Assembly: GCA_050012755.1 (NCBI GenBank) | Contig: JBEKGO010000007.1 | Span: 1 to 64,000, forward strand | DNA length: 64,000 bases | Source of the DNA: Candidatus Bathyarchaeia archaeon | Lineage (GTDB): Archaea; Thermoproteota; Bathyarchaeia; Bathyarchaeales; Bathycorpusculaceae | Direction: 5' to 3' | Part shown: piece after piece, positions 36,276 to 64,000 of the stretch | Layout of the letters: each line of letters starts with the position of its first letter | How positions within the stretch are numbered: position 1 is the first letter of the stretch | Program-made: the position numbers and the translations under genes | The notes under the pieces: generated by a model | Database searches by the model: none | What the model saw: only the letters and a program-made list of their open reading frames with translations | What the model was told of the DNA's origin: nothing

Positions 36276-36893
36276 TCAAGTATTTTTCATGGCTAGTAAC
36301 CGCTCGGCTAAGTGTAGCTCTTCCACTGTGTTTATGTTTACGGCTAATTCGGGTAAATCAAGTAGGAAGATATCTTGATCAAGCCATTCATCGCCATACC
36401 GTTTATGCCCATTAATGACATTGATGCCGACGGGAACAACTTCTTTGTTATCGATTTTGAAGGAGTATTCAATACTCATGCAAAGCTTTGTTTTGGTTTC
36501 AAGCGGAACTGCAACGGTCAGTGCTGGTTTGCCGCAACGCTCGTAACGTTCAATGATGGCATCTAACGCTTGGCTTGTAACCAGTGGCAAATCGGCTGCA
36601 ATGGCTAAGAAAACTCCGAGTTTGAGGTTTTGACTGGCATAACCCATGTCAGAAACATAGTCCTTTCCCGGTGTTTCTAAGACTTTGACTGGGAACTGGC
36701 TAAGGTACTTGGCAGTTTTAGGCGTGCAACCAGTCACAGCAACAACGATGGAATCGATCTTGTTGGAATTTTTCAATGCTGCAATCACGTATTCGATGAC
36801 TGGTTTCCCACAGATTTTGATGAGCGGTTTTTCTTCGGCGAGATGCATACGGGTTCCTTTGCCGCCTGCCATAACAAGTGCTGTTACGCCCAT
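36276..36893 (-). CDS. cobY: adenosylcobinamide-phosphate guanylyltransferase CobY
   Basis: MAGGKGTRM..EKP, ADLPL, NINT; start ATG 36893 overlaps the cobS end. Confidence 0.85.
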   Translation of the reverse strand: MGVTALVMAGGKGTRMHLAEEKPLIKICGKPVIEYVIAALKNSNKIDSIVVAVTGCTPKTAKYLSQFPVKVLETPGKDYVSDMGYASQNLKLGVFLAIAADLPLVTSQALDAIIERYERCGKPALTVAVPLETKTKLCMSIEYSFKIDNKEVVPVGINVINGHKRYGDEWLDQDIFLLDLPELAVNINTVEELHLAERLLAMKNT

Positions 36894-37663
36894 GCAACCG
36901 CCGCCAACAAAACAATCACACAAACCATCCGCGTTATCTCGTTTGTTGCTCCGAACACGTCGCCTGTAACTCCGTTGAAGTTCCCATGTGCAACAGCAGT
37001 CATGATTAAACCTGTGATTACAGCTGCCAAAACAACGAAAATGCCTGCCCAACGCAGTAAAGGAAAGGCAATTACCAACGAAATTATTAACGCAACAATC
37101 AGTCGCAAATCGCCTTTGCCGCTGTGCATGGCTTCTAGAAATGGCGAGTTCATTCCTTCGTGGACTGATTTTCCTGCCCGAGCCATAACCACCATGGAGA
37201 GCTTTGCTGAAAGTTCAATAACAACGACGCCGCCGATTATTAGGCTAAGATTCAACAGACCAACAGAACTATTGTTCAACTGGCCAATAGCTAAAGCCGT
37301 AATCAGTATAGTCATGATTCCTAAGGTTAAACCGCCTGCGCCCGTTAACTGGTCATGCATAACCTCAATTTTATGCTCAGATGTACCATGAGCCATAATT
37401 CCATCGCCAAAATCTAGCAAGCCGTCGGTGTGGTGAAGCCCAGTAATCAACAGAAGCAAAGCCAACACTAAACCGCCTACAACTATGCCTGGCAAAAAAT
37501 AGTACGCAACCCACCCAAACACTCCAGCCAACAAACCGATAAAGGCGCCTATTAAAGGAAAAAACCACATGTACTTGGCGCAGTCAGTGAGCATGTCTTT
37601 ATCCATTGCTACTGGAAAGATGGTTAGGAAAGAAAAAAGATTCTTTAACTCTTTAACAACCAA
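36884..37663 (-). CDS. cobS: cobamide synthase CobS
   Basis: FLTIFP, TGLHHTDGLLDFGDG, MHD...GAGG, GVTGDVFGA.NE. Confidence 0.92.
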   Translation of the reverse strand: MVVKELKNLFSFLTIFPVAMDKDMLTDCAKYMWFFPLIGAFIGLLAGVFGWVAYYFLPGIVVGGLVLALLLLITGLHHTDGLLDFGDGIMAHGTSEHKIEVMHDQLTGAGGLTLGIMTILITALAIGQLNNSSVGLLNLSLIIGGVVVIELSAKLSMVVMARAGKSVHEGMNSPFLEAMHSGKGDLRLIVALIISLVIAFPLLRWAGIFVVLAAVITGLIMTAVAHGNFNGVTGDVFGATNEITRMVCVIVLLAAVAWA

Positions 37664-37670
37664 GCTCGTC

Positions 37671-38771
37671 TCACTTCAAACCCATCAAAGAGGCATAATT
37701 GCGTTCAATCTCTTTAAGCAATAGGTCTTTTGTTACTGCCCCGCCAAGTTTAGCCATCGCTGCTATGGAAGCGCCGCCTGCACCAACACCTTCTTTCACA
37801 AGCCCAGTCTCGTAAATCTGCAAACCTGGAAAACGTGAACAAGTAAAATTTAAGTCAGCGGCTAAAACTGGGACGTCACAGAACTGGGAAACTATACCTT
37901 TGAGGTCAGAGGATTTATCTTTTGCAATCCATCTCGTCGTGCCAACCGCGACGTTGCAGAGTACATCAGGGTTCAAGGCGTTGACAATGGCTAAAATTGC
38001 ACTCATCTGAGTTCCACCAGCCATAAGCACAGGAACCTGCGAAGCTGCACCAACCACTAAGCCTGAGAAAGCAGCCATCATCGGGTCGCCAACACATGAA
38101 ATGGCTCTAACGGGATTTTTTGCTAAACTGCCAAAACTCTCGCCCGCAGCCGTTAAGCCTGCTCTAACAGTTTCAGCCTTCAAACTATGCGGGTTCTCGG
38201 GCAACGTGCTGCTTACTTTTCCTTCAGCTTTCACGCCTAAAGCAGATAATACGCCAAGAGCGGTTGTGGTTCCGCCTGGGATGCTTTCGCCAATCACAAG
38301 ATAATCAACAGCCTTAGCTAAGTGGAGTCCAGCAATTTTCGCTCGCTCAATAACTTCTGCAACGTTGTCAACCGAGTTGCCTGTTCGTATGTCTCTTCCT
38401 GGACTTCCGCCGAAGTCTAGAAAAGGAATTTGTGGTTTCACTTTCACTCCGCCACTAGCAATCAGCACCGGAATGTCAGCTAAATGCAGAGCCGACATAG
38501 TTATGAGGGCTGGTGTCGGGATCCCGTCAGGAGTTATAGGCACTCCGGCAATTGATTTGCAGCGTCCAAGCAGAAGCAATTCAGCGTCGGCTGGTGGAGT
38601 GTAATCGGTGAATTCTGGGTTTGCTCCAGCCGCTGATATGCCTGAGATTTTGCCGGTTTCTGTTGTGCCGATTGTGCAGATGAAAAGGGGGTTTTTGCCT
38701 TCGATTTCTTCGAGGAAAGCTTTCGCTTTCAACGGGTTATTAGCTATTAGAACGTCAAGTGATGTACTCAT
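37671..38771 (-). CDS. cobT: archaeal CobT base phosphoribosyltransferase
   Basis: GISAAG, TPPADAE, PTPALIT, GESIPGGTTTA, GDPM, AGGTQM, KEGVGAGG. Confidence 0.9.
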   Translation of the reverse strand: MSTSLDVLIANNPLKAKAFLEEIEGKNPLFICTIGTTETGKISGISAAGANPEFTDYTPPADAELLLLGRCKSIAGVPITPDGIPTPALITMSALHLADIPVLIASGGVKVKPQIPFLDFGGSPGRDIRTGNSVDNVAEVIERAKIAGLHLAKAVDYLVIGESIPGGTTTALGVLSALGVKAEGKVSSTLPENPHSLKAETVRAGLTAAGESFGSLAKNPVRAISCVGDPMMAAFSGLVVGAASQVPVLMAGGTQMSAILAIVNALNPDVLCNVAVGTTRWIAKDKSSDLKGIVSQFCDVPVLAADLNFTCSRFPGLQIYETGLVKEGVGAGGASIAAMAKLGGAVTKDLLLKEIERNYASLMGLK

Positions 38772-38772
38772 T

Positions 38773-39459
38773 CTACGGTTTTACCTTGCCTTTCAGCTTG
38801 ACCTCGAACTTCTTAATTTCCAAGTATCCGAAGCCGCCGTCTAGCTTGTGCTTTGCAGTTTCTAGAATTTCAATCTTTTTCTTGAAAGTAGGTCCATCAG
38901 TCACGACAGTGTGATATTCGCCACCTTCACCGCATGGATCAACGTTTCCTAGTTTGAGTATGTTGTCGTAGAAATTTTTGTCGAGCACTCTTCCAAGCCA
39001 TTCGATGCCTAGCTTTTCAAGGTTTGTTCGCACCACGGTGGCTTTGTAACCCGTTTTTAAGTAGTCAAGGTAAATCTGTTTTGTGTCACCCATCCAAAGG
39101 GGTTTTACAGGTTTTAGGCCAACTTCTTTGAGCACTCTGCCCAACCATCCTTTCTCATGTCCTGCAACTTCGTAAATGTCGCCTGTAACTAAGCCTTCGG
39201 CGCCTTTGAGCTTTAAGCTTCTGAGCGCACTTTTGAAATCGTTTTCGTAAGTTCCAGGGGTAGCTTGCTGTTTTACCAGTGGAATTCCAATTGCATCTGA
39301 CTGCGCATCCAAGATGGCGGAGGGTATCATGTGGAAGTTTGATTTTTCTTTACTCATCATCATAGTTAACAGGTTGATTACTTCGTAGCCTTGCTGGCTT
39401 GCCAGGTAGTATGCGTAGCAGCTGTCTTTGCCGCCACTCCATGATGCAACAACTTTCAT
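38773..39459 (-). CDS. DUF71/Dph6-like PP-loop ATP pyrophosphatase
   Basis: SWSGGKDS, TGDI, PLW, DPCGEGGEYHT.V.DGP; first gene of the cob operon. Confidence 0.88.
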   Translation of the reverse strand: MKVVASWSGGKDSCYAYYLASQQGYEVINLLTMMMSKEKSNFHMIPSAILDAQSDAIGIPLVKQQATPGTYENDFKSALRSLKLKGAEGLVTGDIYEVAGHEKGWLGRVLKEVGLKPVKPLWMGDTKQIYLDYLKTGYKATVVRTNLEKLGIEWLGRVLDKNFYDNILKLGNVDPCGEGGEYHTVVTDGPTFKKKIEILETAKHKLDGGFGYLEIKKFEVKLKGKVKP

Positions 39460-39771: not shown

Positions 39772-40281
39772 ATGCCCAAAGAAAATTCCACGCTCCTCGA
39801 ATTTTTAGAAAAACACGACATTTCCCTCAAAAGCCTTATCGATTGCGCACTTGAAATGTACGTTCCACATCCCGGCATAGAGACTGAAGAAAAAGCAGCT
39901 GAAATGCTAAGAGAAGAATTTCTTGATGTTCTCAACGACGTTAACGTAGCCATCCTTGAAACGGCAGCTTTCCATGCTCAAGAAGATGCAGAGAAAGGCT
40001 TGATCCCGGGACTAACGCAGGAAAGATTTAAGGGTAGACCGGGACCAGTTGCTGACGAGATTTTAGGGATAGCCATTGCCACTTATATAGGTGGAACCCG
40101 AGCAGTTTTCGAGTATGTTCGGTTTGACCAAGCCAAACCAGGGATTTTAAAGAAGTTGGGCTCAATCACAAACGACGCAATCGGAGCGTTGGTTGCAGGT
40201 GTATCATCCAATGCGTATACTCGAGCTACTAAGAATGCTAACGCAAATCAAACAAGACGAGAAGACGCAGTTTTCTATTAA
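39772..40281 (+). CDS. cobZ: alpha-ribazole phosphatase CobZ (PgpA-like)
   Basis: DVNV, ADEILG..IA.YIGG....FEY.RFD..KPGI; divergent from the cob operon. Confidence 0.8.
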   Translation: MPKENSTLLEFLEKHDISLKSLIDCALEMYVPHPGIETEEKAAEMLREEFLDVLNDVNVAILETAAFHAQEDAEKGLIPGLTQERFKGRPGPVADEILGIAIATYIGGTRAVFEYVRFDQAKPGILKKLGSITNDAIGALVAGVSSNAYTRATKNANANQTRREDAVFY

Positions 40282-40423: not shown

Positions 40424-41581
40424 ATGGTTCAAACAAAGCTGTGCATTGTTACACACACTTTTCTGCCCCATGTCGGCGGAATAGAAAAGGTCGTGAATGA
40501 ACAAAGCAAACGGCTACTTAAAAAAAACTTTGAGCCCATAGTGGTCACGAATCGGATTGGAACACCGAAACATTACGTTGTTGACGGCGTAAGCGTTGAG
40601 TGTTATGAGTCTTTAAACACAGGTTTTCGCCTTGGAATTCCTTATTCGATTCCGACTGTGCCAAGTTTTGGAACGTTTCTTAAGGCTGTAAAATCAAGCA
40701 AAATAGTTCACGCGCATGGTCACCCGTACCTTACCTCGCTTATAGCCGCTAAGCTTGCCAAGAGATATGATAAGCCATTTGTGCTGACTCAACATAACAC
40801 TTTCATTAAGTACGAAAATTTTTTTGACAAAGTTGAACGGTTAAATGATTTAGCCGTCGGGAAAGAAACACTGAAAGAAGCAGACAAGATAATCACTGTA
40901 AGCAACGCCACTAGGGATTATGTTCTAAGTTTAGGTGCGAAACCAAAAAAAGTTGAAGTTATGTATAACGGGGTTGATTTGGAACGTTTCAGGCCTTTGA
41001 CTGGGAAAAGAGAAGAAATGAGAAAAAAACTTGAAATTCCGCAAAACTCCAAAGTGGTCATAACTGTTAGGAGACTAGTTTTCAAAAACGGCATAGACAC
41101 TCTAATGGAATGCGCAAACGTCGTTGTCAAGAAGGACCCAAATATTATTTTTCTAGTTGTTGGCAAAGGCCCAGATCAAATTACCGTGCAGATGAGAGCT
41201 CAACAATTAGGGATAGAAAATAATTTTAGGCTCACTGGATTTGTGAAAGATGAAGATTTACCATTCTACTATAACGCTGCTGACTTCTTCGTCTTGCCTT
41301 CAAAATCAGGAGAAGGCTTGCCTTTGGTCGCCCTTGAAGCTATGGCTTGTGGATTACCAGTAATAGCGACGGATGTTGGTGGCATAAATGAAGTCTTGAC
41401 GGAGAAATGGGGGAGATTGGTCCCCGCTAACCAGCCTGAGTTACTTGCAGAGGCAGTTTTGGAGTTTGCAAATGAAGATTTTTCTTCGCGCAGAAGAGAA
41501 CTGAGGGCATTTGTAGAAGAGAAGTTCAGTTGGTACAAAAACGTAGAAAGGCTCGTCGAAATATACGAAGAGCTTATTTAA
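40424..41581 (+). CDS. glycosyltransferase family 4
   Basis: PHVGGIE, YNGVD, EGLPLVALEAMACG. Confidence 0.93.
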   Translation: MVQTKLCIVTHTFLPHVGGIEKVVNEQSKRLLKKNFEPIVVTNRIGTPKHYVVDGVSVECYESLNTGFRLGIPYSIPTVPSFGTFLKAVKSSKIVHAHGHPYLTSLIAAKLAKRYDKPFVLTQHNTFIKYENFFDKVERLNDLAVGKETLKEADKIITVSNATRDYVLSLGAKPKKVEVMYNGVDLERFRPLTGKREEMRKKLEIPQNSKVVITVRRLVFKNGIDTLMECANVVVKKDPNIIFLVVGKGPDQITVQMRAQQLGIENNFRLTGFVKDEDLPFYYNAADFFVLPSKSGEGLPLVALEAMACGLPVIATDVGGINEVLTEKWGRLVPANQPELLAEAVLEFANEDFSSRRRELRAFVEEKFSWYKNVERLVEIYEELI

Positions 41582-41626
41582 CCAAACTATGGAATCAATA
41601 TAGCCTTCACATCGGAGAAGCACAAG

Positions 41627-42364
41627 ATGACGTCCAAGGTTGAAATGGTTTCGGTTGTCATTCCAACACTCAACGAGGCGGGAAACATTCTGCAAGCAGT
41701 AACTACTATCCACAACGATTTAGCTTATCCCAAAGAAATAATCGTGGTGGATGGCAACTCAACGGACGGCACAAAAGAAATCGTCAAAGACCTAAGTTTT
41801 TGCAAGTTAATTATTGAACCAAGACGGGGATACGGTATTGCGCTCAAAACAGGCATGCAAAAGGCGAAGGGCAACATTATTGTGATGGTTGATGGCGACG
41901 GAACATATGAGGTTAGACATATCAACCGAATGCTGGAAAAAATGGTTGAAAAAGACGCCGATATGGTTTTGGCCACCCGTATGTACGATCCCAAAAAAGC
42001 TATGGGATTTTTGAATTTTATCGGCAATAAAGTCATCACTTTCAGTTTTGATTTTTTCTATAGCCAATTTTTAAGTGACAGCCAGTCGGGTTTTAGAGCA
42101 ATCTCCCATGAAGCCTTCAACAACGTAACTTTGAAAGAGGGAGACATGGCATTTGCCACAGAGATGCTTATCCAATTTGCTAGAGAAGGATACAACATGG
42201 TTGAAATTCCGACTACTTACAAAGCCCGACATTATGGGAAAACAAAACTTAAACCATTTAAGTCAGGGATTGAAATATTCAGTACAATATTCCGGGGGAT
42301 TCTTGATCCAACGACGTTTAGAACGTGTTACGAGCATTGGAAGAAAAATCGGCTTAAACGATGA
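41627..42364 (+). CDS. glycosyltransferase family 2 (DPM1-like)
   Basis: VIPTLNE, VDGNSTDGT, DGDG, DSQSGFR. Confidence 0.92.
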   Translation: MTSKVEMVSVVIPTLNEAGNILQAVTTIHNDLAYPKEIIVVDGNSTDGTKEIVKDLSFCKLIIEPRRGYGIALKTGMQKAKGNIIVMVDGDGTYEVRHINRMLEKMVEKDADMVLATRMYDPKKAMGFLNFIGNKVITFSFDFFYSQFLSDSQSGFRAISHEAFNNVTLKEGDMAFATEMLIQFAREGYNMVEIPTTYKARHYGKTKLKPFKSGIEIFSTIFRGILDPTTFRTCYEHWKKNRLKR

Positions 42365-42830
42365 GAAAGGCTACGCAGTTGCCATTCTTATTGTTTTAAT
42401 AATTGTATCCGCACTCGTCGCAGGCTACTATTTAGTATTTAATACACCACCAGCAGGGTACAACACAATCTACATCCTTGACGCTCAAAAACAAGCGGTT
42501 AATTACCCAGTTTCGTTAGTTGCCAACCAGAACAGCACTTTTGACCTTTGGATAGGCGTTGTAAACAATATGGGAGGAAACGGAAACCAAAGTTATCAGG
42601 TCCTCGTTAAAATAACCTCGAACCCTCCAAGTTTCCCAGTTAACGTTCAGCCAACCCAAACATACGATTTAAGCTTAAGAAACACCGCAACTTGGCAAAC
42701 TGAATCAACGATAACTCTGAATCAGGTTGGAAACTATTGGGTTGTGTTTGAGCTATGGCATCAAAATTCTGCGGGCACGTACGATTTTACAAATGATGAA
42801 GCTGACTTAAACGTTCAAGTTACCAGTTAA
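42153..42830 (+). CDS. DUF1616-like membrane-anchored protein (true start probably near 42340-42350)
   Basis: TM followed by YILD.Q.QAVNYP and an Ig-like beta domain; the 5' part of the ORF overlaps the GT2 gene. Confidence 0.6.
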   Translation: MPQRCLSNLLEKDTTWLKFRLLTKPDIMGKQNLNHLSQGLKYSVQYSGGFLIQRRLERVTSIGRKIGLNDEKGYAVAILIVLIIVSALVAGYYLVFNTPPAGYNTIYILDAQKQAVNYPVSLVANQNSTFDLWIGVVNNMGGNGNQSYQVLVKITSNPPSFPVNVQPTQTYDLSLRNTATWQTESTITLNQVGNYWVVFELWHQNSAGTYDFTNDEADLNVQVTS

Positions 42831-44288
42831 TTTTTGTCTTTGGGCAAATTCTTTTTCGATGGCTACTCGATGGATGTTGTTGTAGGCGCAGAATGGTATG
42901 ATTTTGAGGTCGGGTGTAATGTAGTGGACTACGCAGCGTCTGACTCGGTTAACATCAAAATTGTATGAGTCCATGAATGCCATGCACCCCAGCAGAAAGA
43001 TTCTTCTGCGGATTTTGCCTAGCGACTGATAAGAGGGGGATAGGTGCATTCGCATAATTGAGTTCATCAGGGTAAGCATGCCGACTTCTTTGGTCACTAA
43101 GAACATGTCCATCGAAAGCATAGAAGCCATAAACAGAGAAGAGAGCAACGAGAGTTTGCCTTTAGACTCTGCGGTCTCTGCAGTTTTGCGAATGCTATTA
43201 AAGAATCTGTCAAAGTTGACGAAGCGATTGATTGGGAACATTTTGCCATCTTTTGAAACGTAAATCCAGTTTACAATGCCGCATTGTGGGCTACAGGAGA
43301 AGAGAGGCCAAGGTTTCTGCATGAATTTACGCATTATCTTTATGGGAGAAGTCATGACCGACATCGGGTACAGGTCAGTGCTTTTAATTTCGCCACGTGT
43401 TTGCCTCTCGACGTCTTCGGCAAAATGCCATTCACGGAAGTTTTCCCTAAATCTGTTTGCCGTAGCCCTGCCCGTGAAGGCGATTGGCTGGAAAATCAAG
43501 CCCCTAACAATATCAGTGTTTTTTGACGCGAACCTAATTATGTCGCCGACTTCTTCATCGTTTAAACTCTTCATAAGTGTGTTTACGAGGATTACTTCTA
43601 TGTCGTATTGACGGCAAACGTCCAGAGCTTTTAACTTGTAGTCAAAAAGCGCTTGCCCTCGAACCTTCTTGTAGAAGTCATCATGAAAACTGTCAAATTG
43701 CAAGTAAACAATGTTTAACCCGCTTTTCTTTAGCCTTTCCGCTAACTGGGGATTTTCAGCTAAACGCACGCCGTTAGTGGCAAGAATAGTCATGAACTTG
43801 AGTTTATGTGCTACAGCGATGATTTCAGGCATATCTTCCCGTTCAGTCGGTTCTCCACCTGAGAAGAGTATGGCTGGTGGTTTGGGGTTGGCTTGGCTTG
43901 CGAATTCAAGCATTCTGATAAGGTGTTCGTTGGTGGGTTCGTAATCGATTTCTTGCTCAGGAAAAGTTGAGAAGCAGATGGCGCATTTTAGGTTGCACCG
44001 TTTGGTTACATCGATGACTCCTATGACCGTGCCTGAAGCGTGGTTGTTGCATGTTTCGCAAACGTAGGGACAGCCTTTTGGGTCTTTTGGAGCGTTTAAG
44101 TCGCCGAGGTATTGGAATTGATCGTAGGTTTGCATGTGATTGTAAACATCTGTGCTCTGCCAATGAGTCGCTTCAAAGTTTCCGTGTTCGGGGCATTGCT
44201 TGGTGATTTGAATTTTTCCGTTTGCCTGTGTTAATTGAGCATCGATTTTTTTCTGGCATTCAGGGCAGATGCTCTTGGTGTCGGTCAT
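42807..44288 (-). CDS. tes: tetraether synthase (Tes/GDGT-MAS, MJ0619 family)-like radical SAM
   Basis: N-terminal CPEC...CPEH, GCPYVCETCNNH, rSAM CNLKCAIC, SGGEPT, C-terminal CSPQCG, MAFMDSYNFD..R..RCVVHY, IPFCAYN. Confidence 0.85.
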   Translation of the reverse strand: MTDTKSICPECQKKIDAQLTQANGKIQITKQCPEHGNFEATHWQSTDVYNHMQTYDQFQYLGDLNAPKDPKGCPYVCETCNNHASGTVIGVIDVTKRCNLKCAICFSTFPEQEIDYEPTNEHLIRMLEFASQANPKPPAILFSGGEPTEREDMPEIIAVAHKLKFMTILATNGVRLAENPQLAERLKKSGLNIVYLQFDSFHDDFYKKVRGQALFDYKLKALDVCRQYDIEVILVNTLMKSLNDEEVGDIIRFASKNTDIVRGLIFQPIAFTGRATANRFRENFREWHFAEDVERQTRGEIKSTDLYPMSVMTSPIKIMRKFMQKPWPLFSCSPQCGIVNWIYVSKDGKMFPINRFVNFDRFFNSIRKTAETAESKGKLSLLSSLFMASMLSMDMFLVTKEVGMLTLMNSIMRMHLSPSYQSLGKIRRRIFLLGCMAFMDSYNFDVNRVRRCVVHYITPDLKIIPFCAYNNIHRVAIEKEFAQRQKLTGNLNV

Positions 44289-46092: not shown

Positions 46093-46139
46093 TTAAATCA
46101 CGATAAAGCCTATATTTCTTTAAGTCAGTTGTAGGGTAT

Positions 46140-47605: not shown

Positions 47606-47692
47606 GCTGCAAGGGACGCAGTTTTTAGAGAAATATTTAACATCCTAAGTACCTACTCTAAACCAGTTGCAGCCTCAGGAGACAAATCTCGG

Positions 47693-52256: not shown

Positions 52257-52259
52257 TTG

Positions 52260-53022: not shown

Positions 53023-53601
53023 ATGGAAAGTTTGATATCAAAGATGGAAACCACTATGCAGACCGGTAAAGTTTACGTTGACAAAAAAATTTGGTTTTCC
53101 ATGTGGTTTCTGGGCGCGGTTGTTACTTTCGGCGTAGCTTTTTTCCCCATGTTTTACCGTCTAGTTGATGGCAGAAATAAGCATTTTCAACATGAAAAGG
53201 AATTTGAAAAACAAGTAGCTGAACGTTTAGAAAAACAAGGCAAAAAACCGCCAGCAACAAGCCAGCGTTTTGCAGAGATGAATGCTAAGGCATGGGCAGT
53301 AAGCATCATTTTGGTTGTGCCGGTTTTCATTATTGTTTACTTGTTATCGAGGGATTTGGTGGTGCATGAGCGGAGTGAAGATGCTTTTCTCGCATCTGCT
53401 TTTCCAACGCGGATTTTTATGCCTCAGACGATACCGATAAAAACATATGTTTTAGTTACAATTTGTACGCTGGGTGTCGGAGTTGTTTATTGGCTGTACA
53501 AGGTTGTTAACTTGTATAACGCTCACTACAAAGCCGAGCTGCAAGTGGAAAAAGAAGTAAACAAATTAACGGAGGAAGAGAGCGGTGTCAGACAATTGTA
53601 A
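53023..53601 (+). CDS. membrane protein (DUF4234-like)
   Basis: ICTLG...VYWLYK.V..YN.H motif; TM segments. Confidence 0.65.
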   Translation: MESLISKMETTMQTGKVYVDKKIWFSMWFLGAVVTFGVAFFPMFYRLVDGRNKHFQHEKEFEKQVAERLEKQGKKPPATSQRFAEMNAKAWAVSIILVVPVFIIVYLLSRDLVVHERSEDAFLASAFPTRIFMPQTIPIKTYVLVTICTLGVGVVYWLYKVVNLYNAHYKAELQVEKEVNKLTEEESGVRQL

Positions 53602-55592: not shown

Positions 55593-56951
55593 TCAGGACA
55601 AAATCAGGGGAGCTTTCTTAATAACGGTCCAGAACCCTTCTCGCTTAATCTTGTGCAGAATCCGCTTTGGCGACTTGTTGAAGTTCATGTGGAATTGCCG
55701 CTGAATCTTCAGCAATGAAGCGTAGTCGAAGTCAGCAGTTTTTACATATGCCGCGTAATCTTCAATTTGGTCGTAGAGGTGTTTTTGCATGACTTCATCA
55801 TAGAGGGGACTGCCTGGAACTGCAATGTAGATGTTCCAACGAATGAAGTCAGGGTCAAGTTTTCTAGCGAACTTGAATGAAGTTTTCATGTCCTCGACTG
55901 TTTCGCCTGGGATGCCTAGCAGAAAAGAACAAGCAGTTTGAATGCCCTCATCTCTGCACAGCTCAAACGCACATTCAGTCTGCTCGACGGTGACGCCCTT
56001 GTTAATTTTCTCAAGAATTCGGGGAGAACCGGATTCGACGCCGAACCATATTGTTTTGCAGCCTGCAGATTTCATTTCTTGCAGGAGCTCTTTTGAGAGG
56101 AGGTCGGCTCGGGTGTCGCATACCCATTGGAGGTCAAGCTTATTTTCACGGATTAATCTACATAGTTCAATGGTTTCTTTCTTTTTGATGGTAAAGTTAT
56201 CGTTTATGAAGTAGACGCCTTTTGTGTCGAAGTTTGTCATTAAATATTTGATTTCGTCCACAACCCTTTGAGGGCTGAAGGTGCGGCATGTTCGTCCCAT
56301 TAATCCGGTGGTTTCACAGAAAGCACAATTAAACGGGCAGCCTCTTGCGATACTCATGTTGTCTATGGGTTTAACGTTTAGGTATTCCATTTCCCTGACA
56401 TAACGGTCCATCGGCAACAGATGCCAAGCGGGGAAAGGAATCTCATCCATATTAGTAATGAATTGCCGTTGGTTTTTGATTATTTTGTCGTCATTTCTGT
56501 AGACGAGTCCAGCAATCTTGGAGGGGTCGTTGGCTTTGTCGCCTTTAACGATATAGTTGGCAAGCTGCACCATGGCGCATTCGCCCTCGCCCATAACAAC
56601 GTAGTCAACTTCGGGGTTCTGCAACAAGGTTTCAGGTTCATATGAGGCATGCCAGCCGCCAACCACAACTTTGCAGGCGGGAACGGTTTCTTTAACTGCC
56701 TTGGCGGTTTCGATGACACGACTGTAAGTTACTGAGCTACAGGTTATACCGACTATTTCAGGTTTGAGTTTCGCTAGTTCAGTCTTTATTTCTTCAATTG
56801 GTTTCTCCAGCATGTAGTTATCTATCATCTGGACCTGAAAACCGCCTTTTTCAAGGGCTGCTGCAACGTAAGCTAAGCCTATTGGAATGAATCTTCTGCC
56901 ATGAATCCAAGGTCCCTTTGTTGGGGGTGCTGGCGTCATTAACAAAATCAA
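55593..56951 (-). CDS. B12-binding radical SAM enzyme #1
   Basis: PIGLAYVAA, GGWH, GEGE, RGCPFNCAFC, DDNF-like NDNF, GVESG; start TTG 56951 or ATG 56939. Confidence 0.9.
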   Translation of the reverse strand: MILLMTPAPPTKGPWIHGRRFIPIGLAYVAAALEKGGFQVQMIDNYMLEKPIEEIKTELAKLKPEIVGITCSSVTYSRVIETAKAVKETVPACKVVVGGWHASYEPETLLQNPEVDYVVMGEGECAMVQLANYIVKGDKANDPSKIAGLVYRNDDKIIKNQRQFITNMDEIPFPAWHLLPMDRYVREMEYLNVKPIDNMSIARGCPFNCAFCETTGLMGRTCRTFSPQRVVDEIKYLMTNFDTKGVYFINDNFTIKKKETIELCRLIRENKLDLQWVCDTRADLLSKELLQEMKSAGCKTIWFGVESGSPRILEKINKGVTVEQTECAFELCRDEGIQTACSFLLGIPGETVEDMKTSFKFARKLDPDFIRWNIYIAVPGSPLYDEVMQKHLYDQIEDYAAYVKTADFDYASLLKIQRQFHMNFNKSPKRILHKIKREGFWTVIKKAPLILS

Positions 56952-57183
56952 TCGATATGCATCCTGTTTATTGCGAGTAGAAATATTTACTATGGAAGTT
57001 TGTAGATAAAGATTTCTTAAAAAAGCGCAATCTTGGTTTTTTCGCAGTTTGAGGTTGAGTGAAGTGGAAGTTGCGGGTGTTTCATCAAGCAAACTCAATT
57101 TTGCAGTTTTTAGCTAAATCTACGAAATGTTTAAGCATCCGTCATCTTGTAATTTCAGGAAATAGGGCACTTAGTGAAACGGA

Positions 57184-58569
57184 ATGAAGCCGCACGTAAC
57201 TCTTGTAAATCCACCCACCCCGCAGGGATCCATGGGGCATTTACCATTCGCAGTTTTAGGTTTAGGCTATTTAGCCGCGGTTTTGGAGAAAAACAACTTC
57301 AAAGTTGACGTTATCGACTGTCAGGCGCTCAAACTCTCATTTGAACAAACTAAAGAGGAGATCAAAAAGCGCCAGCCCGACATAGTCGGCTTAACAGCAA
57401 GCACGCTCTCATACAAATCAGGATTAAAAATTATACAATTGGCAAAAGAAGTTAACCCTAACATCTTAACCATGATGGGTGGACCACATGTCACCTTCTG
57501 GGACACCCAAGCCCTTGAAGAGTGCCCACAACTCGATGTCGTGGTAAGAAGAGAAGGCGAGTACACAGTACTAGAGTTAGTGCAAAAGGTGGAGGCAAAA
57601 CAAGGCTTCCAAGATGTCCTCGGAATAACATACCGTAGCAATGGCAAAATCGTCAAAAATGAAGACCGACCCTACATAGAAAACCTCGATGAACTCCCCT
57701 TTCCCGCACGCCATCTCTGGCCTATGGAGCAACTGCGCAAGTATGAAGATGTCCTTTACTTAACCACCAGCAGAGGCTGCGTATTCTGGTGCAACTTCTG
57801 TGCAACCGTACGAATGCATGGTCGAAAATATCGGTGGAGAAGCCCCGAAAATGTGGCAGATGAACTAGAGTTCCTGCATAAAAACTATGGCGTAGTCACA
57901 TTCACCTTCTGTGACGACGCATTCACCGTGGACCAAGCAAGAACCGAGAAGTTGTGCAAAGAAATTCTCGACCGTAAATTACAAATAAAATGGAACTGCG
58001 GTACCCGCGTTGACATGCTAACCAAAGAGTTGCTTGTTAAAATGAGGGAGGCGGGTTGCATTTCGGTTTGGTTTGGGGTGGAGTCGGGTTGTCAGCAGGT
58101 TCTTGATGAAATGAAGAAAGGCATCACCACTGAACAAACCATAAAAGTGTTGGGTTGGGTTAGAGAAGTCGGGTTGAAACCGGTTCCCAACGTAATCTTA
58201 GGGTTTCCTAGTGAAACAAAGAAGACTGCTTGGAAAACCATTAGGTACGCGGAGAAACTTGGTCCTAAAGATGTGCCGTTCTATAATATTGCTACGCCGT
58301 TTCCGGGGACGCCCATGTATGATCAGGTTGTAGAGAAGGGCTGGCTGAAAGTAACTGACTTTGACAAGTATGATACTGCAACGCCCATTTTTGAAACGCC
58401 TTGGATAAGCATGAAACAGCTTAAAGAGATTCGGCAGCAGGCGTTCAACCACTTCTATCTGAGACGCGCTTACTATCTTGACAAGTCCCGACGGTTCAAA
58501 ATTTCCACGGCACTCACGGTTGGAATCAACTTGGCGGCATTTATAAAATCGAAGTTTAGAGCACTATAA
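57184..58569 (+). CDS. B12-binding radical SAM enzyme #2
   Basis: LGLGYLAA, GGPH, EGE, SRGCVFWCNFC, DDAF, GVESG, TPFPGT. Confidence 0.92.
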   Translation: MKPHVTLVNPPTPQGSMGHLPFAVLGLGYLAAVLEKNNFKVDVIDCQALKLSFEQTKEEIKKRQPDIVGLTASTLSYKSGLKIIQLAKEVNPNILTMMGGPHVTFWDTQALEECPQLDVVVRREGEYTVLELVQKVEAKQGFQDVLGITYRSNGKIVKNEDRPYIENLDELPFPARHLWPMEQLRKYEDVLYLTTSRGCVFWCNFCATVRMHGRKYRWRSPENVADELEFLHKNYGVVTFTFCDDAFTVDQARTEKLCKEILDRKLQIKWNCGTRVDMLTKELLVKMREAGCISVWFGVESGCQQVLDEMKKGITTEQTIKVLGWVREVGLKPVPNVILGFPSETKKTAWKTIRYAEKLGPKDVPFYNIATPFPGTPMYDQVVEKGWLKVTDFDKYDTATPIFETPWISMKQLKEIRQQAFNHFYLRRAYYLDKSRRFKISTALTVGINLAAFIKSKFRAL

Positions 58570-59103: not shown

Positions 59104-60507
59104 ATGACCGTTCACATTACACTGGTAAATCCTCCATATCCTTTGGGGTCTCATTTGCACCCGCCGTTCCTCCCATTGGGTCTTGGTTATTTAGCTGCAG
59201 TTTTGGAAAAAAACAATTACAAAGTTGACATAATCGATTGCCAAGCCCTCAAAATTGGCTATGACGAAGCTAAAGAGGAAATCAAAACTCGCCAGCCTGA
59301 CATCGTCGGAATTACCTCAACAACGCTTACTTACAAATCTGCGTTGAAAATTGTGCAGATGGCTAAAGAAGTAAACTCTAACATCTTAACAATTATGGGA
59401 GGACCACATGTCACCTTCTGGGACACCCAAGCCCTTGAAGAGTGCCCACAACTCGATGTCGTGGTAAGAAGAGAAGGCGAACAAACCGTATTAGAGTTAG
59501 TGCAAAAAGCCGAAGCAAAACAAAGCTTCAAAGACATATTAGGCATCACATACCGCGACAATGGGCAAATAGTCAGAACCGAAGACCGCCCCTGGCTAGA
59601 AAACCTCGACGAATTACCCTTCCCAGCCATTCATCTGTGGCCTATTGAAAAAATGCGAAGCTTCGGCGAAGTAATCTTCCCCTTAACCACCAGCAGAGGC
59701 TGCGTCTTTTGGTGCAACTTCTGTACTGCCGTTCGAATGTTTGGCAGAAAATACCGCATGAGAAGCGTAAAGAACGTCGTAGATGAAATTGAATATCTGC
59801 ACAAAACCTTTGGCGCAGAACACTTTACCTTCTACGATGATGCATTCACAGTAGATCAAGCCCGAACAGAAGCACTCTGCCAAGACATCCTTGACCGCGG
59901 GTTAAAGATACGGTGGAACTGCGAAACCCGTGTTGACATGGTAACCAAAGAGCTACTTGCTAAAATGAAAGCTGCAGGATGCACTGATGTCTGGTTCGGC
60001 GTCGAATCCGGTTCTAATAAAGTCTTAAACTCCATGGACAAGGGAATCTCCATTGAACGAACGCAGCAAGCCTTCAAGTGGGCACACGAAGTCAAACTAA
60101 TGACCGTCGCAAACGTCATTCTTGGCTTCCCAACTGAAACAAAAGAAAGCATCTGGGAAACCGTAAAATTCATTGAAAAACTAGACCCCAACGACGTCGG
60201 CTACTACATCGCAACACCTTACCCAGGAACACCCATGTACAACCAAGTGAAAGAAAGCGGCGCACTTCAAGTCTTCGATTTCGACAAATACGACACAGCA
60301 ACACCAACCTTCAAACTCGACAACTTAACCATGGAAGAACTCAGAGAAACACGCGAAAAAGCATTCCACAGCTTCTACCTGCGACCCCGCTACATGCTCA
60401 GCGTGATCTTTAAAGGCGGGGTCTACGGGCGAGCCTCAACCATGCTGGTCTTAGCTCACCTTCGAAGAGCAATAAGATCCAAATTCTCCTCCAGAAAATC
60501 ATCATAG
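59104..60507 (+). CDS. B12-binding radical SAM enzyme #3 (close paralog of #2)
   Basis: PLGLGYLAA, GGPH, SRGCVFWCNFC, GVESG, TPYPGT. Confidence 0.92.
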   Translation: MTVHITLVNPPYPLGSHLHPPFLPLGLGYLAAVLEKNNYKVDIIDCQALKIGYDEAKEEIKTRQPDIVGITSTTLTYKSALKIVQMAKEVNSNILTIMGGPHVTFWDTQALEECPQLDVVVRREGEQTVLELVQKAEAKQSFKDILGITYRDNGQIVRTEDRPWLENLDELPFPAIHLWPIEKMRSFGEVIFPLTTSRGCVFWCNFCTAVRMFGRKYRMRSVKNVVDEIEYLHKTFGAEHFTFYDDAFTVDQARTEALCQDILDRGLKIRWNCETRVDMVTKELLAKMKAAGCTDVWFGVESGSNKVLNSMDKGISIERTQQAFKWAHEVKLMTVANVILGFPTETKESIWETVKFIEKLDPNDVGYYIATPYPGTPMYNQVKESGALQVFDFDKYDTATPTFKLDNLTMEELRETREKAFHSFYLRPRYMLSVIFKGGVYGRASTMLVLAHLRRAIRSKFSSRKSS

Positions 60508-60612: not shown

Positions 60613-61446
60613 ATGAAAGTCGCTGCTATGTGGAGCGGAGGAAAAGACAGTTCGCTTGCCACTTACGATGCTGTTATGCAAGGGCTAGAAGTTTCAGACA
60701 TCGTAAACTACAGCTATAAGGGAATTGCTCAGCCAAATCCAAACATGCCCACTAGTCCCCTAAGTCGGATTTTCAGTACAGTTGGAAGAGCAAGCCCAAG
60801 TATAGTATCCAACCTCGCAAGCGTCATCTACCATAAAGACCTCAGCACCATGATTCCCCATGAGGTTGCACCAGAAATCATTCAGAAGCAAGCCCAAGCA
60901 ATCGAAGTGCCGCTTGTTCAGGGCGAAGTAAGATGGGACACAATTGACCAATTCTTAAAAACCAGCATTCGCTCACTAAAGACAAAAGGGGTCGAAGGTT
61001 TAGTTTTCGGAGTCGTTCCACCCCATTTTCCTCTGGACACTACTGAGAAACTCAGAGAATACCAAACTCTTGTGGCACATAAAGAATGGATGAATCGCAT
61101 CTGCCGCGAATTAGACATAAAACCAATTACACCGCTATGGGAAAGCAACCCTGATCAGATTCTAGAAGACCTTATCGCCAAAGGGTTTGAATCAATCATA
61201 CTTGTGGTGGATTCGAAATATTTTGGCGCAGAATGGTTGGGTCGAAAAATAGACAAGGACTTCTTGGATGCCGTATACAAACTTAAACGGGAAAAAAGCG
61301 TGCATATCGGAGGCAGCGGATACCACACGCTGGTTTTAGACGGCCCGCTTTTCAAGAAACGGCTGAAGATTCAAAAAAGCCGAAAAATTTGGAAACGCGG
61401 ATACGGTGTATTAGAAATCGATGCACTGGATCTCGTTGCAAAATAA
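60613..61446 (+). CDS. divergent DUF71/Dph6-like PP-loop ATPase with internal insertions
   Basis: MWSGGKDS, PLW, WLGR, YHT.V.DGP.FKK; GEGGE replaced by GGSG. Confidence 0.75.
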   Translation: MKVAAMWSGGKDSSLATYDAVMQGLEVSDIVNYSYKGIAQPNPNMPTSPLSRIFSTVGRASPSIVSNLASVIYHKDLSTMIPHEVAPEIIQKQAQAIEVPLVQGEVRWDTIDQFLKTSIRSLKTKGVEGLVFGVVPPHFPLDTTEKLREYQTLVAHKEWMNRICRELDIKPITPLWESNPDQILEDLIAKGFESIILVVDSKYFGAEWLGRKIDKDFLDAVYKLKREKSVHIGGSGYHTLVLDGPLFKKRLKIQKSRKIWKRGYGVLEIDALDLVAK

Positions 61447-61538: not shown

Positions 61539-63005
61539 GTGCCTCGTATGTCGATGGTGGAAAAGAAAAATGTGAAGGTCGCATTAGTTAACCCACCTAT
61601 CACTGAAGGCACCTTCCGCCATCAACTCTATCTGCCCATGGGCTTAGCCTATTTAGCGGCTGTTCTTCAACAAAACGGCATCGAAGTTAAAATCATCGAT
61701 TGCCAGGCCCTTTACATAAATCATGAGCGCCTAAAATCAGAGTTAAGCTCTTTTCAACCAGACATTGTAGGGATAACATCAATTGCCCCGTTGATGAGTT
61801 CAGCGTTGCTATCAGCAAAGGCGGCAAAAGAAACCCTGCCAGCCGTCCAAGTGATAATGGGTGGGCCTCACGCGACATTTATGGATGAGCAAATCATTGC
61901 CCAGGAATCAGCGGTTGACCTCATCGTTAGAGGTGAAGGCGAACAGACGCTACTCGAAATTGCACAAAACCTATGTGAAAACAGCAAACTCCACGACATT
62001 CAAGGAATCACTTACAAAGAAAACTACCAGGTTCTCCGAACGCCCAATCGACCTTTCATTCAAGATTTGGATGCACTGCCCAAGCCAGCCTACGAACTCT
62101 TCGAGCTTGACAGGTATCGGCTGTTTGGAAAAAGACTCTTACCCGTAATCACAAGCCGAGGATGCCCATTTCAATGCAATTTCTGTGTCGCAACACGCAT
62201 GTTCGGCAAAGAATACCGTATGCGAAGTGCAGAAGGAGTGCTCGACGAGTTGGAATGGCTAAAGAACACTCATGGAGCTGAAGCTTTCACGTTCTATGAC
62301 GATACATTAACATTTAACAAGGAGAGACTTTTCAAAATCTGCGACGGAATGAAAACCCGAGGAATCAACCTGCCCTGGGATTGCCAAACAAGAGTTGACC
62401 AAGTGACACTTGAGGTTTTAGCGAAGATGCACGCAGCGGGCTGCCAACAGGTGTTCTTCGGTGTAGAATCGGGTTGCCAAAAAATCCTCAATGCAGTAAG
62501 CAAAAAAACAAATGTTGAACAAAACGAAAAAGCGATAAAAATGGCAAAAGAAGCGGGTCTTTTCGTTACTATCTCGCTAATAATTGGTTATCCAGGGGAA
62601 ACGCAAGATACATTGAGAGAAACATTGACTTTTGTTCAAAAAACAAAACCTGACGATGTTTATGTCTGTGTCGCTACGCCTTTTCCAGGAACTGAGCTAC
62701 GGAATGTTGTTGAGAAAAATGGGTGGAAAATATCTGCTAACTGGGATTGCTTTGATACAATGACACCTGTTTTTGAAAACCCCGAGTTATCACTGTCACC
62801 CGAAGAAATTAAGAGATTTAGAAAACAATTCTACGACAGCATCTATTCTCCAAGCTACGTTATACAGCATTTGCTAAGAAGAAATTCCTACAGCAGAATG
62901 ATGGCGAGAACAGCCGCAAACCACATTTTATGGAGAATCAAATCCTCTCGAAAACATTCGAAGGATATAGCCGCAGCAAACAGTGCCCAACAGACAGCTA
63001 CCTGA
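61539..63005 (+). CDS. B12-binding radical SAM enzyme #4
   Basis: PMGLAYLAA, GGPH, GEGE, SRGCPFQCNFC, GVESG, TPFPGT. Confidence 0.92.
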   Translation: MPRMSMVEKKNVKVALVNPPITEGTFRHQLYLPMGLAYLAAVLQQNGIEVKIIDCQALYINHERLKSELSSFQPDIVGITSIAPLMSSALLSAKAAKETLPAVQVIMGGPHATFMDEQIIAQESAVDLIVRGEGEQTLLEIAQNLCENSKLHDIQGITYKENYQVLRTPNRPFIQDLDALPKPAYELFELDRYRLFGKRLLPVITSRGCPFQCNFCVATRMFGKEYRMRSAEGVLDELEWLKNTHGAEAFTFYDDTLTFNKERLFKICDGMKTRGINLPWDCQTRVDQVTLEVLAKMHAAGCQQVFFGVESGCQKILNAVSKKTNVEQNEKAIKMAKEAGLFVTISLIIGYPGETQDTLRETLTFVQKTKPDDVYVCVATPFPGTELRNVVEKNGWKISANWDCFDTMTPVFENPELSLSPEEIKRFRKQFYDSIYSPSYVIQHLLRRNSYSRMMARTAANHILWRIKSSRKHSKDIAAANSAQQTAT

Positions 63006-63012
63006 AAAAGAA

Positions 63013-64000
63013 CTATTTTGGATAATAACCTAAAACCTTCAGTAACGCCTTGGTGGATGGATATCTTCCATACTTAACATGGATTGCCTGAAGAATCTCT
63101 TTTGCAGGAAAAAGAAAATTAACGGTCTTGTTTAATTCATGAAAGGGTTTCCCGCTGAACTGGGAGTAATTGTGAATGTAGAAGAGGAGGGCTTGTTTGC
63201 GCGAATAAAAGTGAGGAATGAAATTTTCGATTTTGTATTTTCTGCAGATAGAATCGAACCGAACGTATGTAGCGTACAAGTAAGACTCTTCCATGTTACC
63301 ACATGAAGGCGACGTTGGTCTGCCCTCATATAGCTCATTATATTTTGAAAGCAGGGGCGTAGGTTGGTGGTTCAGGAAATTTTTGAAGCGGTCCGATCCC
63401 CTCATATCTAACATTCCGCTTAAAACAAATTTGGCACCGTTTTTCTTAGCTGCCTCAATAACCTGTGACATATTTTCCTCGGTGTCTGTTACATATGGAA
63501 TAAGCGGAATCATCCACAAACCGACGGTTATGCCCCTATCTGACAGTTTTTTTATCACTTCTAATCTTCTTTGCGGAGAAGGCGCATTCGGTTCTAGAGT
63601 TTTTGCTAGTTTTTCATCAAGGGTTGTTATGGTTACCGCGATGCAACACCATGATTTTTTAGAAGCCTCTTCCAAAAGATCTATATCACGTAGAATAAGA
63701 TCGGACTTTGTGCCGATTGCAAAAGGCCAACTGTTCTCATTTAACACTTCCAAAATTTTACGTGTAATTTGATATTTCTTTTCCGCTGGCTGGTAAGGGT
63801 CTGTGCTCAAGCTTAATCTGACCACGCCTTTCCTCTTGAAGGTGGATAATTCTTTGGCTAATATTTCGGGTGCATTTGTCTTAGCGTAAACAGGAACTGA
63901 AAAATCTTTGCACTTTTCATATTTTTGAGAACTAGTGTGGCAGTACAAACAATTGAATTCGCAGTTATTGTAGGGATCAAAACAGTAGCTTGTCCAAAAC
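63013..64000 (-). CDS. SplB-like radical SAM protein (5' end outside window)
   Basis: Reading to the edge gives FDPYNNCEFNCLYCH; TDPYQP.E, TKS.LI.RD.D, LEP.AP....R. Confidence 0.85.
   Translation of the reverse strand, partial: FWTSYCFDPYNNCEFNCLYCHTSSQKYEKCKDFSVPVYAKTNAPEILAKELSTFKRKGVVRLSLSTDPYQPAEKKYQITRKILEVLNENSWPFAIGTKSDLILRDIDLLEEASKKSWCCIAVTITTLDEKLAKTLEPNAPSPQRRLEVIKKLSDRGITVGLWMIPLIPYVTDTEENMSQVIEAAKKNGAKFVLSGMLDMRGSDRFKNFLNHQPTPLLSKYNELYEGRPTSPSCGNMEESYLYATYVRFDSICRKYKIENFIPHFYSRKQALLFYIHNYSQFSGKPFHELNKTVNFLFPAKEILQAIHVKYGRYPSTKALLKVLGYYPK

Follow-up and report, generated by a model that had tools for sequence, protein, structure and literature searches.

A conserved gene cluster of Bathyarchaeia that may couple tetraether-lipid tailoring to corrinoid salvage and remodelling

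Results

A dense block of lipid-type, radical SAM and cobamide genes

The window analysed here is the first 64,000 bases of contig JBEKGO010000007.1 (C7, which ends at 65656) in the metagenome-assembled genome of a peat-dwelling member of the Bathyarchaeia; this genome comprises 2.41 Mb in 65 contigs and is scored 100% complete. In its part from 36276 to 64000, 27 likely genes are called in the list of open reading frames (ORFs), and families were assigned by Pfam and NCBIfam profile searches of the window proteins. An earlier note had proposed a dedicated locus here that builds and modifies a membrane-spanning lipid and supplies the cobamide cofactor. All genes that it listed are present, and the profile searches confirm four B12-binding radical S-adenosylmethionine enzymes (B12-rSAMs), one methyltransferase, five glycosyltransferases (GTs; two GT4 and three GT2) and one epimerase (Table 1).

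These 28 kb hold both CobS genes of the genome, both CobY-like genes, two of three DUF71 genes, one of two tetraether synthase (Tes) genes, one of two UbiA prenyltransferases resembling digeranylgeranylglyceryl phosphate (DGGGP) synthase (DGGGPS), four of seven B12-rSAMs of the cluster type and the sole genomic radical SAM protein with a SPASM domain (rSAM-SPASM) that carries an N-terminal extension. Such clustering far exceeds chance expectation. The invariant core of the block is a short-chain dehydrogenase/reductase (SDR)-UbiA2-Tes2 operon facing cobS2-cobY2. The SDR (motifs GGAGFIG and YGLSK) is the first gene of its operon, SDR/UbiA2, UbiA2/Tes2 and cobS2/cobY2 each overlap by 4 nt, and the two units diverge from a short A/T-rich spacer.

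Table 1. Features of the window, with scores in bits against the curated cut-offs
Feature	Position	Strand	Basis
Energy-coupling factor (ECF)-type transporter: two ABC ATPases and CbiQ/EcfT	32245..34717	+	Pfam ABC_tran twice, CbiQ
Small membrane ORF	34866-35294		weak DUF420 match
AP_endonuc_2 gene (xylose-isomerase-like TIM barrel)	35367..36248	+	Pfam; synteny
cobY1, CobY-like nucleotidyltransferase	36276..37052	-	NTP_transf_3; TIGR00454 142 < 174.7
cobS1, canonical cobamide synthase	36884..37663	-	TIGR00317 150 > 110; motif HHTDGLLDFGDG with Asp
Archaeal cobT	37671..38771	-	TIGR00303 384.6 > 240; single genomic copy
DUF71a, PP-loop ATPase, DUF71-B12-like motif	38773..39459	-	PF01902; Dph6 136.8 < 197.3; GEGGEYH
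cobZ-like PgpA-family phosphatase	39772..40281	+	TIGR03161 124.5 < 152.5; single genomic copy
GT4a and GT2a glycosyltransferases	40424..42364	+	Pfam; GT2a AglJ-like 165.8 < 325
DUF1616 membrane protein	42153..42830	+	PF07760, residues 75-215; true start probably later
Tes2, divergent second tetraether-synthase paralogue	42807..44288	-	NF045702 475.2 > 450
UbiA2, DGGGP-synthase-like prenyltransferase paralogue	44285..45160	-	PF01040; NF009521 163.8 < 296
Extended SDR (GalE-like epimerase/dehydratase)	45157..46092	-	Pfam Epimerase; galE 167.4 < 262.3
Divergent intergenic spacer, 47 bp, A/T-rich; putative shared promoter	46093..46139	none	sequence
cobS2, diverged CobS with Asn for the acidic residue	46140..46985	+	TIGR00317 113.6 > 110; motif QHFDGLIDLGNA
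cobY2, second CobY-like nucleotidyltransferase	46982..47605	+	TIGR00454 119.7 < 174.7
rSAM-SPASM of Gms architecture	47693..49135	+	AhbD-like core TIGR04545 314.8; 117-aa extension
DUF362 protein	49104..50069	+	PF04015; co-conserved; 32-nt overlap with rSAM-SPASM
GT4b, GT2b, GT2c glycosyltransferases	50066..52976	-	Pfam; NCBIfam all below cut-offs; synteny
o192, small membrane protein	53023..53601	+	no family match; overlaps cobD2 by 17 nt
cobD2, diverged threonine-phosphate-decarboxylase-like pyridoxal-phosphate enzyme	53585..54703	+	TIGR01140 275 < 290.55
Class I SAM methyltransferase	54708..55556	-	Pfam
B12-binding radical SAM 1	55593..57098	-	PF02310 and PF04055; CX3CX2C
B12-binding radical SAM 2	57184..58569	+	B12-binding and radical SAM domains; CX3CX2C
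B12-binding radical SAM 3	59104..60507	+	B12-binding and radical SAM domains; CX3CX2C
DUF71b, second PP-loop ATPase, between B12-rSAM genes	60613..61446	+	PF01902
B12-binding radical SAM 4	61539..63005	+	B12-binding and radical SAM domains; CX3CX2C
Last radical SAM, PA0069/Rv2578c family	63013 onward		outside the conserved cluster

Conservation and phyletic distribution

Synteny was counted in 80 named records with Tes2 counterparts 79-97% identical and in the best 80 of 359 metagenome relatives, retrieved with a CobS2 alignment; counts are restricted to loci with room, that is, to those whose contig extends far enough. In the named loci, UbiA2 lies beside Tes2 in 79/79, and SDR, cobS2 and cobY are present in 76/76, 75/75 and 72/73. 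The metagenome loci have SDR in 45/45, UbiA2 in 26/26, Tes2 in 20/20 and cobY in 56/56. The gene next after Tes2 is GT2a or the DUF1616 gene in 59 of 73 named loci, and rSAM-SPASM follows cobY2 in 47 of 65. Modules outside the core are usually adjacent, with their order rearranged among relatives. Most of the 80 named records are titled Bathyarchaeota, Bathyarchaeia or Bathycorpusculum, and the best 80 of 359 metagenome loci are all close relatives (65-92% identity) that bring no new independent lineage.

For a wider view, 40-60 kb were fetched around the cluster in 15 relatives, 11 of the window's own family (f1) and four of a distant family (f5). The core is found in 15/15 of these regions, cobD2-o192-GT2c-GT2b-GT4b with rSAM-SPASM in 12/15, B12-rSAMs in 10/15, the methyltransferase in 7/15 (both families) and CbiB2, often beside a B12-rSAM of the type found on contig C10, in 6/15; in relatives, the cluster also contains CbiB2, further B12-rSAM genes and additional copies of DUF71. 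Synteny across Bathyarchaeia had been suggested as a check of the locus, and the neighbourhood proves conserved even in f5, where the order is kept at about 45% protein identity despite rearrangements. The f5 regions show GT4a and/or GT2a (DUF1616 in 3/4) followed by SDR-UbiA2-Tes2, then cobS2-cobY2-cobD2-o192 and GT2c-GT2b-GT4b, together with rSAM-SPASM, DUF362 (3/4), the methyltransferase and B12-rSAMs (3/4; those of genome G199 lie just beyond the fetched stretch). The cobY1-cobS1-cobT-DUF71 operon adjoins the cluster in 11/11 regions of f1 and 0/4 of f5.

In a sample of 201 genomes of the class, Tes2-type proteins (at least 64% identity) occur in 19, the window's included, from five genera of f1, and a type with 46-47% identity occurs in six genomes of one f5 genus (g20); the remaining Tes matches are of the Tes1 type (36-43%). 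CobS2-type proteins are encoded in the same 19 and six genomes, 2-6 kb from Tes2, and neither type was found in the other 176 of the 201. All 25 holders also have a CobS1-type protein, which is present alone in 32 further genomes, and no CobS was found in the eight f1 genomes lacking Tes2. The interleaving of cobamide with lipid genes, as first noticed at this locus, is therefore borne out, and both this sample and an order-level sample of 61 genomes add that the two kinds of genes are co-inherited.

Second copies of Tes and UbiA

Tes2 matches NF045702 above its cut-off over residues 4-483 (474.9 bits in the whole-genome search) and carries a Zn_ribbon_HMPTM domain. Aligned to the solved tetraether synthase of Methanocaldococcus jannaschii (GDGT-MAS, 7TOL), it retains the rubredoxin CX2C...CX2H motif, the N-terminal CX3CX2C plus His, the radical SAM CX3CX2C and the C-terminal cluster residues, with the motifs taken from PMC9433317; both CX3CX2C motifs lie at residues 73 and 98. 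The genome holds two matches above the Tes cut-off, and the copy on contig C42 scores higher, both against the profile (660.5 bits) and against 7TOL (550 bits versus 386 for Tes2). Tes2 and the C42 protein are 38% identical. In a quick, unrooted tree of 31 rows, which the program accompanied by a warning on long branches meeting, 10 Tes2 rows from both holder families lie apart from 21 Tes1 rows of 14 families on a branch with 100% support in the approximate likelihood-ratio test (SH-aLRT). A comparison of the two holder lineages gives an identity of about 68% for Tes1 and of about 45-46% for Tes2. Given the better C42 copy and the separate side of the tree, Tes2 is not orthologous to the housekeeping Tes of the class. 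The label of a Tes-like gene thus stands with regard to the cut-off and all metal-cluster motifs of the solved enzyme, with the amendment that this is a divergent second copy.

UbiA2 presents a similar picture. Its best solved relative is the DGGGP synthase 6M31 (109 bits), and the Asp-rich motifs are kept: NDFFDRESD at residue 63 corresponds to NDxxDxxxD, and a second D...D motif aligns with 6M31. The protein falls below both DGGGPS cut-offs (for NF009523, 166.6 against 269), as does the better copy on contig C31 (181 and 236 bits for NF009521 and NF009523). The likeness to DGGGP synthase claimed for this gene is hence supported by structure match and motifs and qualified by the cut-offs and the C31 copy. 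By these comparisons, Tes2 and UbiA2 are accessory paralogues and not housekeeping genes, and Tes2 is a candidate for coupling phytanyl termini into biphytanyl chains. In the ESM Atlas, the nearest neighbours were CobS and Tes clusters only, which serve as leads only.

A fixed substitution in CobS2

CobS1 and CobS2 both score above the cut-off of the CobS family (TIGR00317 / PF02654), and we scored the last position of its motif HxDGxxDxx[D/E]. CobS1 orthologues have Asp there in 46/46. All CobS2 orthologues in which the motif was found have Asn (87/87, both families), as have the metagenome loci (80/80 in the best 80 of 359). A protein search over 1.84 billion representatives yielded 150 best matches, 120 of which show the motif, with D in 102, E in one and N in 17. 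The 17 Asn representatives are all nearest kin of CobS2, and 103/103 non-CobS2 proteins keep the acidic residue; 17 is also the number of representatives that match CobS2 at E <= 1e-30 among the 1.84 billion. In a quick maximum-likelihood tree of 117 CobS rows, a branch with 99% SH-aLRT support sets the 12 Asn rows apart from all others. We found no solved CobS structure, and the substituted residue is predicted to be catalytic. Since a family-invariant acidic residue is lost, CobS2 may not make a standard cobamide.

Corrinoid salvage and a second, diverged set of cobamide genes

A profile search of the genome found no CbiC, and for a CobQ/CbiP-type GATase_3 it gave two weak matches only, the better with 26.3 bits, or 27.5 when summed with its neighbours (cut-off 27), which we read as the likely absence of CobQ/CbiP. 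The genome, in which neither gene was found, is that of a corrinoid salvager. The proposal that the locus has its own cobamide-assembly genes therefore holds for the late pathway and not for the corrin ring, which is not made, so that salvage and remodelling take the place of synthesis.

The genome has two each of CbiZ, CbiB, CobD-like, CobY-like and CobS proteins, with one CobT and one CobZ-like protein. The CobD copy on contig C20 scores 310.2 bits, above the TIGR01140 cut-off, and adjoins CbiB1. CbiB2 passes the CbiB cut-off (237.6 > 165.9) and lies with a fifth cluster-type B12-rSAM at the start of contig C10 (G000:C10:3859-7094, L095). Because this pair belongs to the supercluster in relatives, C10 may continue the locus past the end of C7. 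For CobY, the profiles TIGR00454 / NF045495 were applied; the best solved relative of CobY2 is CobY of M. jannaschii (68.5 bits), and the true start of cobY1 is probably near 36893, as a tblastn search with cobY2 aligns 36285-36893. In the order sample, at least two CbiZ matches occur in 13/14 cluster holders (genome G082 has one), and so do at least two CbiB matches (13/14); the two non-holders with CbiZ/CbiB show a single match for both. In two genomes (G118 and G032), the distance from a CbiZ copy to a B12-rSAM is at most 2 kb. The duplication of CbiZ and CbiB in holders, with CbiZ near B12-rSAMs, ties the second set to corrinoids.

Of the two DUF71 proteins, DUF71a has the motif GEGGEYH with His (Table 1), and DUF71b keeps SGGKDS and YH with its glutamates lost (GGSGYH). 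The DUF71-B12 subgroup is described by the motif ENGE[F/Y]H, in which His replaces the Dph6 Glu (PMC3541065).

Further genes touch on this subject. The ECF transporter, the small membrane ORF and the AP_endonuc_2 gene adjoin cobY1 in most loci of f1, and together they may represent a corrinoid uptake system plus a salvage step. The cobZ-like gene has a PgpA (phosphatidylglycerophosphatase A) fold and is found at the side of the cob operon that faces the glycosyltransferases and Tes2, and its product may be a lipid phosphatase. The 192-aa membrane protein o192 is translationally coupled to cobD2 and always found beside it in both holder families. As to the extent of the locus, the genes assigned to 36276-64000 are there, and the block as a whole is larger: in f1 it begins upstream at the ECF transporter and AP_endonuc_2 gene, and CbiB2 and a further B12-rSAM lie on C10.

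Radical SAM enzymes and glycosyltransferases

The rSAM-SPASM protein consists of an AhbD-like core (residues 118-466; TIGR04545 cut-off 500) with a SPASM domain, preceded by a Cys-rich N-terminal extension; the next paralogue in the genome aligns to the core alone. According to Garcia et al. 2024 (PMC11214058), Gms is homologous to AhbD and extended at its N terminus by about 100 aa, and Bathyarchaeota have many Gms and multi-copy Gmm2 homologues. The suggested Gms-like identity is thereby retained as a likeness of architecture, core plus extension, to this published description. Full-length homologues with 41-49% identity are found in many Bathyarchaeia families without Tes2. In five genomes of three families, the Gms-like gene directly adjoins a B12-rSAM gene without Tes2 or the rest of the cluster, and these B12-rSAMs are 37-41% identical to those of the window. 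This adjacency is the gms-gmm pattern that the paper describes (PMC11214058).

B12-rSAM 2 and 3 share 65-68% identity. B12-rSAM relatives with at least 51% identity, in two to five copies, are confined to Tes2 holders, apart from a partial match in one genome (G148). Methylation is not the sole option for such enzymes, because a Bathyarchaeota B12-rSAM of a similar broad kind desaturates GDGTs (glycerol dialkyl glycerol tetraethers), as shown in a preprint (bioRxiv 10.1101/2025.10.20.683597).

Discussion

A possible pathway from salvaged corrinoids to tailored lipids

The family to which each gene belongs, its paralogues, the conserved and co-occurring gene neighbours and the substitution in CobS2 are observed directly. 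Based on these data, we favour, with a probability of roughly 55%, a lineage-specific supercluster of peat and soil Bathyarchaeia that couples tetraether-lipid tailoring to corrinoid salvage and remodelling. All substrates and products, and likewise the delivery of cobamide to the B12-rSAMs, are inferred from the genes. As the corrin ring is not built, corrinoids would be imported, possibly via the adjacent ECF transporter, and stripped by CbiZ and perhaps also by the DUF71 proteins. The linker and the lower loop would then be rebuilt by CbiB, CobD, CobY, CobS, CobT and CobZ, and the resulting cobamide would feed the four or more Gmm/BchE-like B12-rSAMs of the cluster. Together with the Gms-type rSAM-SPASM, these enzymes could modify membrane-spanning lipids by cross-linking as well as by methylation or a different C-H functionalisation. 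The SDR-UbiA2-Tes2 operon would build or couple a variant diether or tetraether core beside the housekeeping Tes and UbiA encoded elsewhere, and the glycosyltransferases would attach sugars. Most likely, the second set (CbiZ2, CbiB2, CobD2, CobY2, CobS2) still handles corrinoid and yields a non-standard loop for these enzymes. The idea of a dedicated lipid locus with cobamide supply is thus supported in part by the conserved neighbourhood, the Tes motifs, the Gms architecture and the co-inheritance; the butanetriol (BDGT), pentanetriol (PDGT) or methylated glycerol monoalkyl (GMGT) tetraethers named as possible products remain guesses.

Comparison with known systems

Like the gms-gmm(-grs) clusters, the window combines B12-binding radical SAM genes with a nearby SPASM radical SAM gene whose product has an AhbD-like core, extended at the N terminus by about 100 aa, the comparison with Gms and Gmm being one of description and architecture and not of clade (PMC11214058); the same paper reports gms clustered with tes in bacteria (Garcia et al. 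2024). In contrast to these clusters, the one described here also contains second copies of Tes and of a DGGGPS-like UbiA, as well as an SDR, five glycosyltransferases, a class I methyltransferase and a diverged late-cobamide set. With GDGT-MAS of M. jannaschii, Tes2 has in common a full-length match above the cut-off and all cluster-binding motifs, whereas it is accessory, shares 38% identity with the C42 copy and lies in a clade apart from the 21 Tes1 rows. The work on this enzyme is reportedly that of Zeng 2022 and Lloyd 2022. A Tes-like protein is no guarantee of GDGT synthesis, because a second Tes homologue of Methanosarcina acetivorans, MA_1114, gave no GDGT upon expression (PMC8941075).

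The first cobamide set corresponds gene for gene to archaeal cobinamide salvage and nucleotide-loop assembly (CbiZ, CbiB, CobD, CobY, CobS, CobT, CobZ), and the His-motif DUF71 inside the operon is a candidate DUF71-B12 protein (PMC3541065). What sets this genome apart from that scheme is a whole second, diverged set that travels with lipid genes and includes a CobS with Asn. The corrinoid-dependent organohalide-respiration regions of Sulfurospirillum multivorans and Dehalococcoides contain their own corrinoid salvage or biosynthesis genes, and they are alike in placing genes of a cobamide-dependent pathway beside genes for cobamide supply or remodelling. They differ in that the clients in the window are lipid-type radical SAM enzymes in an archaeon and that its duplicated loop enzymes are strongly diverged instead of near-identical. 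Our literature search found no description of such a cluster organisation, with the supplementary trees and datasets of Garcia 2024 and 2025, which may list these Bathyarchaeota Gms/Gmm2 sequences, lying outside the search.

Alternative explanations

Several points weigh against a coupling of lipid tailoring to corrinoid remodelling. The four B12-rSAMs pass no curated NCBIfam equivalog, the best being BchE/HpnJ with 233-264 bits against cut-offs of 481-578, and CobY1, CobY2, the CobZ-like protein and CobD2 also fall under theirs. No second CobT or CobZ was found in the genome, and CobS2 may not be a cobamide synthase at all. GT2a and GT2c resemble AglJ and dolichyl-phosphate hexose transferases, below cut-off, so the glycan target may be a lipid or a protein-glycan carrier. 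There are just two lineages of holders, so that few independent events stand behind the co-occurrence. Nor are the cluster halves physically linked everywhere, because two genera (g3 and g7) carry the module of Gms-like and B12-rSAM genes on contigs other than that of the Tes2 core. Moreover, what is known of the cluster and its holders comes from gene sequences.

Some of these points would fit a recruitment of CobD2, CbiB2, CobY2 and CobS2 away from cobamide, such that their aminopropanol-phosphate linker chemistry (amide formation, GMP activation and transfer to a hydroxyl) is applied to a lipid or glycolipid that UbiA2, Tes2 and the glycosyltransferases produce, for instance so as to attach a polar head group. 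Apart from the missing second CobT and CobZ, this would explain why CobS2 and Tes2 occur in exactly the same genomes and next to each other without exception, with the divergent spacer common to both units, and why a D-to-N exchange at a family-invariant position is fixed in all CobS2 orthologues of one clade that has so few representatives in the protein search. CobS and CbiB are, in addition, integral membrane enzymes. On the other hand, CbiZ, for which we know of no substrates other than corrinoids, occurs in duplicate among the holders and is a neighbour of B12-rSAMs in two of them, CbiB2 and CobS2 pass their curated cut-offs, the nearest solved relative of CobY2 is a CobY, and all holders carry many B12-rSAMs that need cobamide. 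We therefore regard such a recruitment as unlikely. Still less likely is an intermediate in which the second set, CbiZ2 included, makes no ordinary cobamide and CobS2 would join a GMP-activated corrinoid-aminopropanol-phosphate to an acceptor other than a nucleotide, namely a lipid or glycolipid hydroxyl provided by SDR-UbiA2-Tes2 and the glycosyltransferases, giving a membrane-anchored cobamide for the B12-rSAM lipid enzymes. It is likewise doubtful that two or three unrelated functions, namely a cobamide salvage island, an N-glycosylation-type surface-glycan set (glycosyltransferases, SDR, DUF1616) and lipid radical SAM genes, are neighbours merely by a shared need for B12 or as a genomic island, with no single product. 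The AglJ-like matches, the DUF1616 protein and GalE-like SDR typical of glycan clusters, the rearranged modules and the unlinked halves in g3 and g7 would all agree with this. However, the SDR is translationally coupled to UbiA2/Tes2 and invariant in the loci of both synteny samples, the same module set is kept in the second family, and in the class sample the genes are either all present or all absent. That the genes were brought together by chance or by errors of assembly or binning, as one might fear for a metagenome-assembled genome in 65 contigs, is very improbable, since the same order recurs in the 80 named records, contigs of >1 Mb and complete chromosomes among them, in 80 metagenome contigs and in the 15 extended regions, and the stretch is present in peat and wetland runs of 23 studies. 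The most economical account is a cluster for lipid tailoring in which genes of corrinoid salvage and remodelling, inherited together with it, serve the B12-radical-SAM enzymes.

Significance

In peat, soil and sediment, Bathyarchaeia rank with the most abundant archaea, and their lipids are known only indirectly. The cluster offers a concrete, conserved gene set, with additional copies of Tes and of a DGGGPS-like enzyme, one enzyme of the Gms type and several Gmm-like B12-rSAMs, which may bear on the biological source of the cross-linked or methylated tetraethers used as palaeo-proxies in peat. Its arrangement, common to related species, points to a putative B12-dependent membrane-lipid pathway that has not been described so far. 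Besides, a diverged late-cobamide duplicate with a CobS that lacks the invariant acidic residue, inherited strictly with lipid genes, may point to an enzyme activity that is new. Radical SAM enzymes would be supplied with a second form of cobamide, or else the chemistry of the cobamide loop would act on a new substrate, and each of these would be new biochemistry if true.

Neighbouring genes and minor observations

A further radical SAM gene had been counted as part of the locus. It is present at the downstream end, and it is excluded from the conserved cluster because none of the 15 extended regions has a member of its PA0069/Rv2578c family. In the distant family, the interval between Tes2 and cobS2 holds genes for a HemN-like radical SAM protein, a hydrolase and a pyridine-nucleotide-disulphide oxidoreductase, which the window's family does not share and which were set aside. 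An Rfam scan of 30000-64000 at gathering thresholds gave zero matches, riboswitches included, and remained empty also for the 534-bp gap between B12-rSAM 2 and 3 (58570-59103), which is without a listed ORF of at least 100 aa. Window positions 42800-50100 matched no listed RNA run. Three Tes2 loci with 79-93% identity are titled Acidoferrum, Methanocella and Limnocylindrales (L011, L069 and L087) and are probably mis-binned Bathyarchaeia contigs. Upstream of the cluster, the stretch 25109-28185 encodes a GDSL lipase-like protein and, after it, two membrane acyltransferases of the Acyl_transf_3 family.

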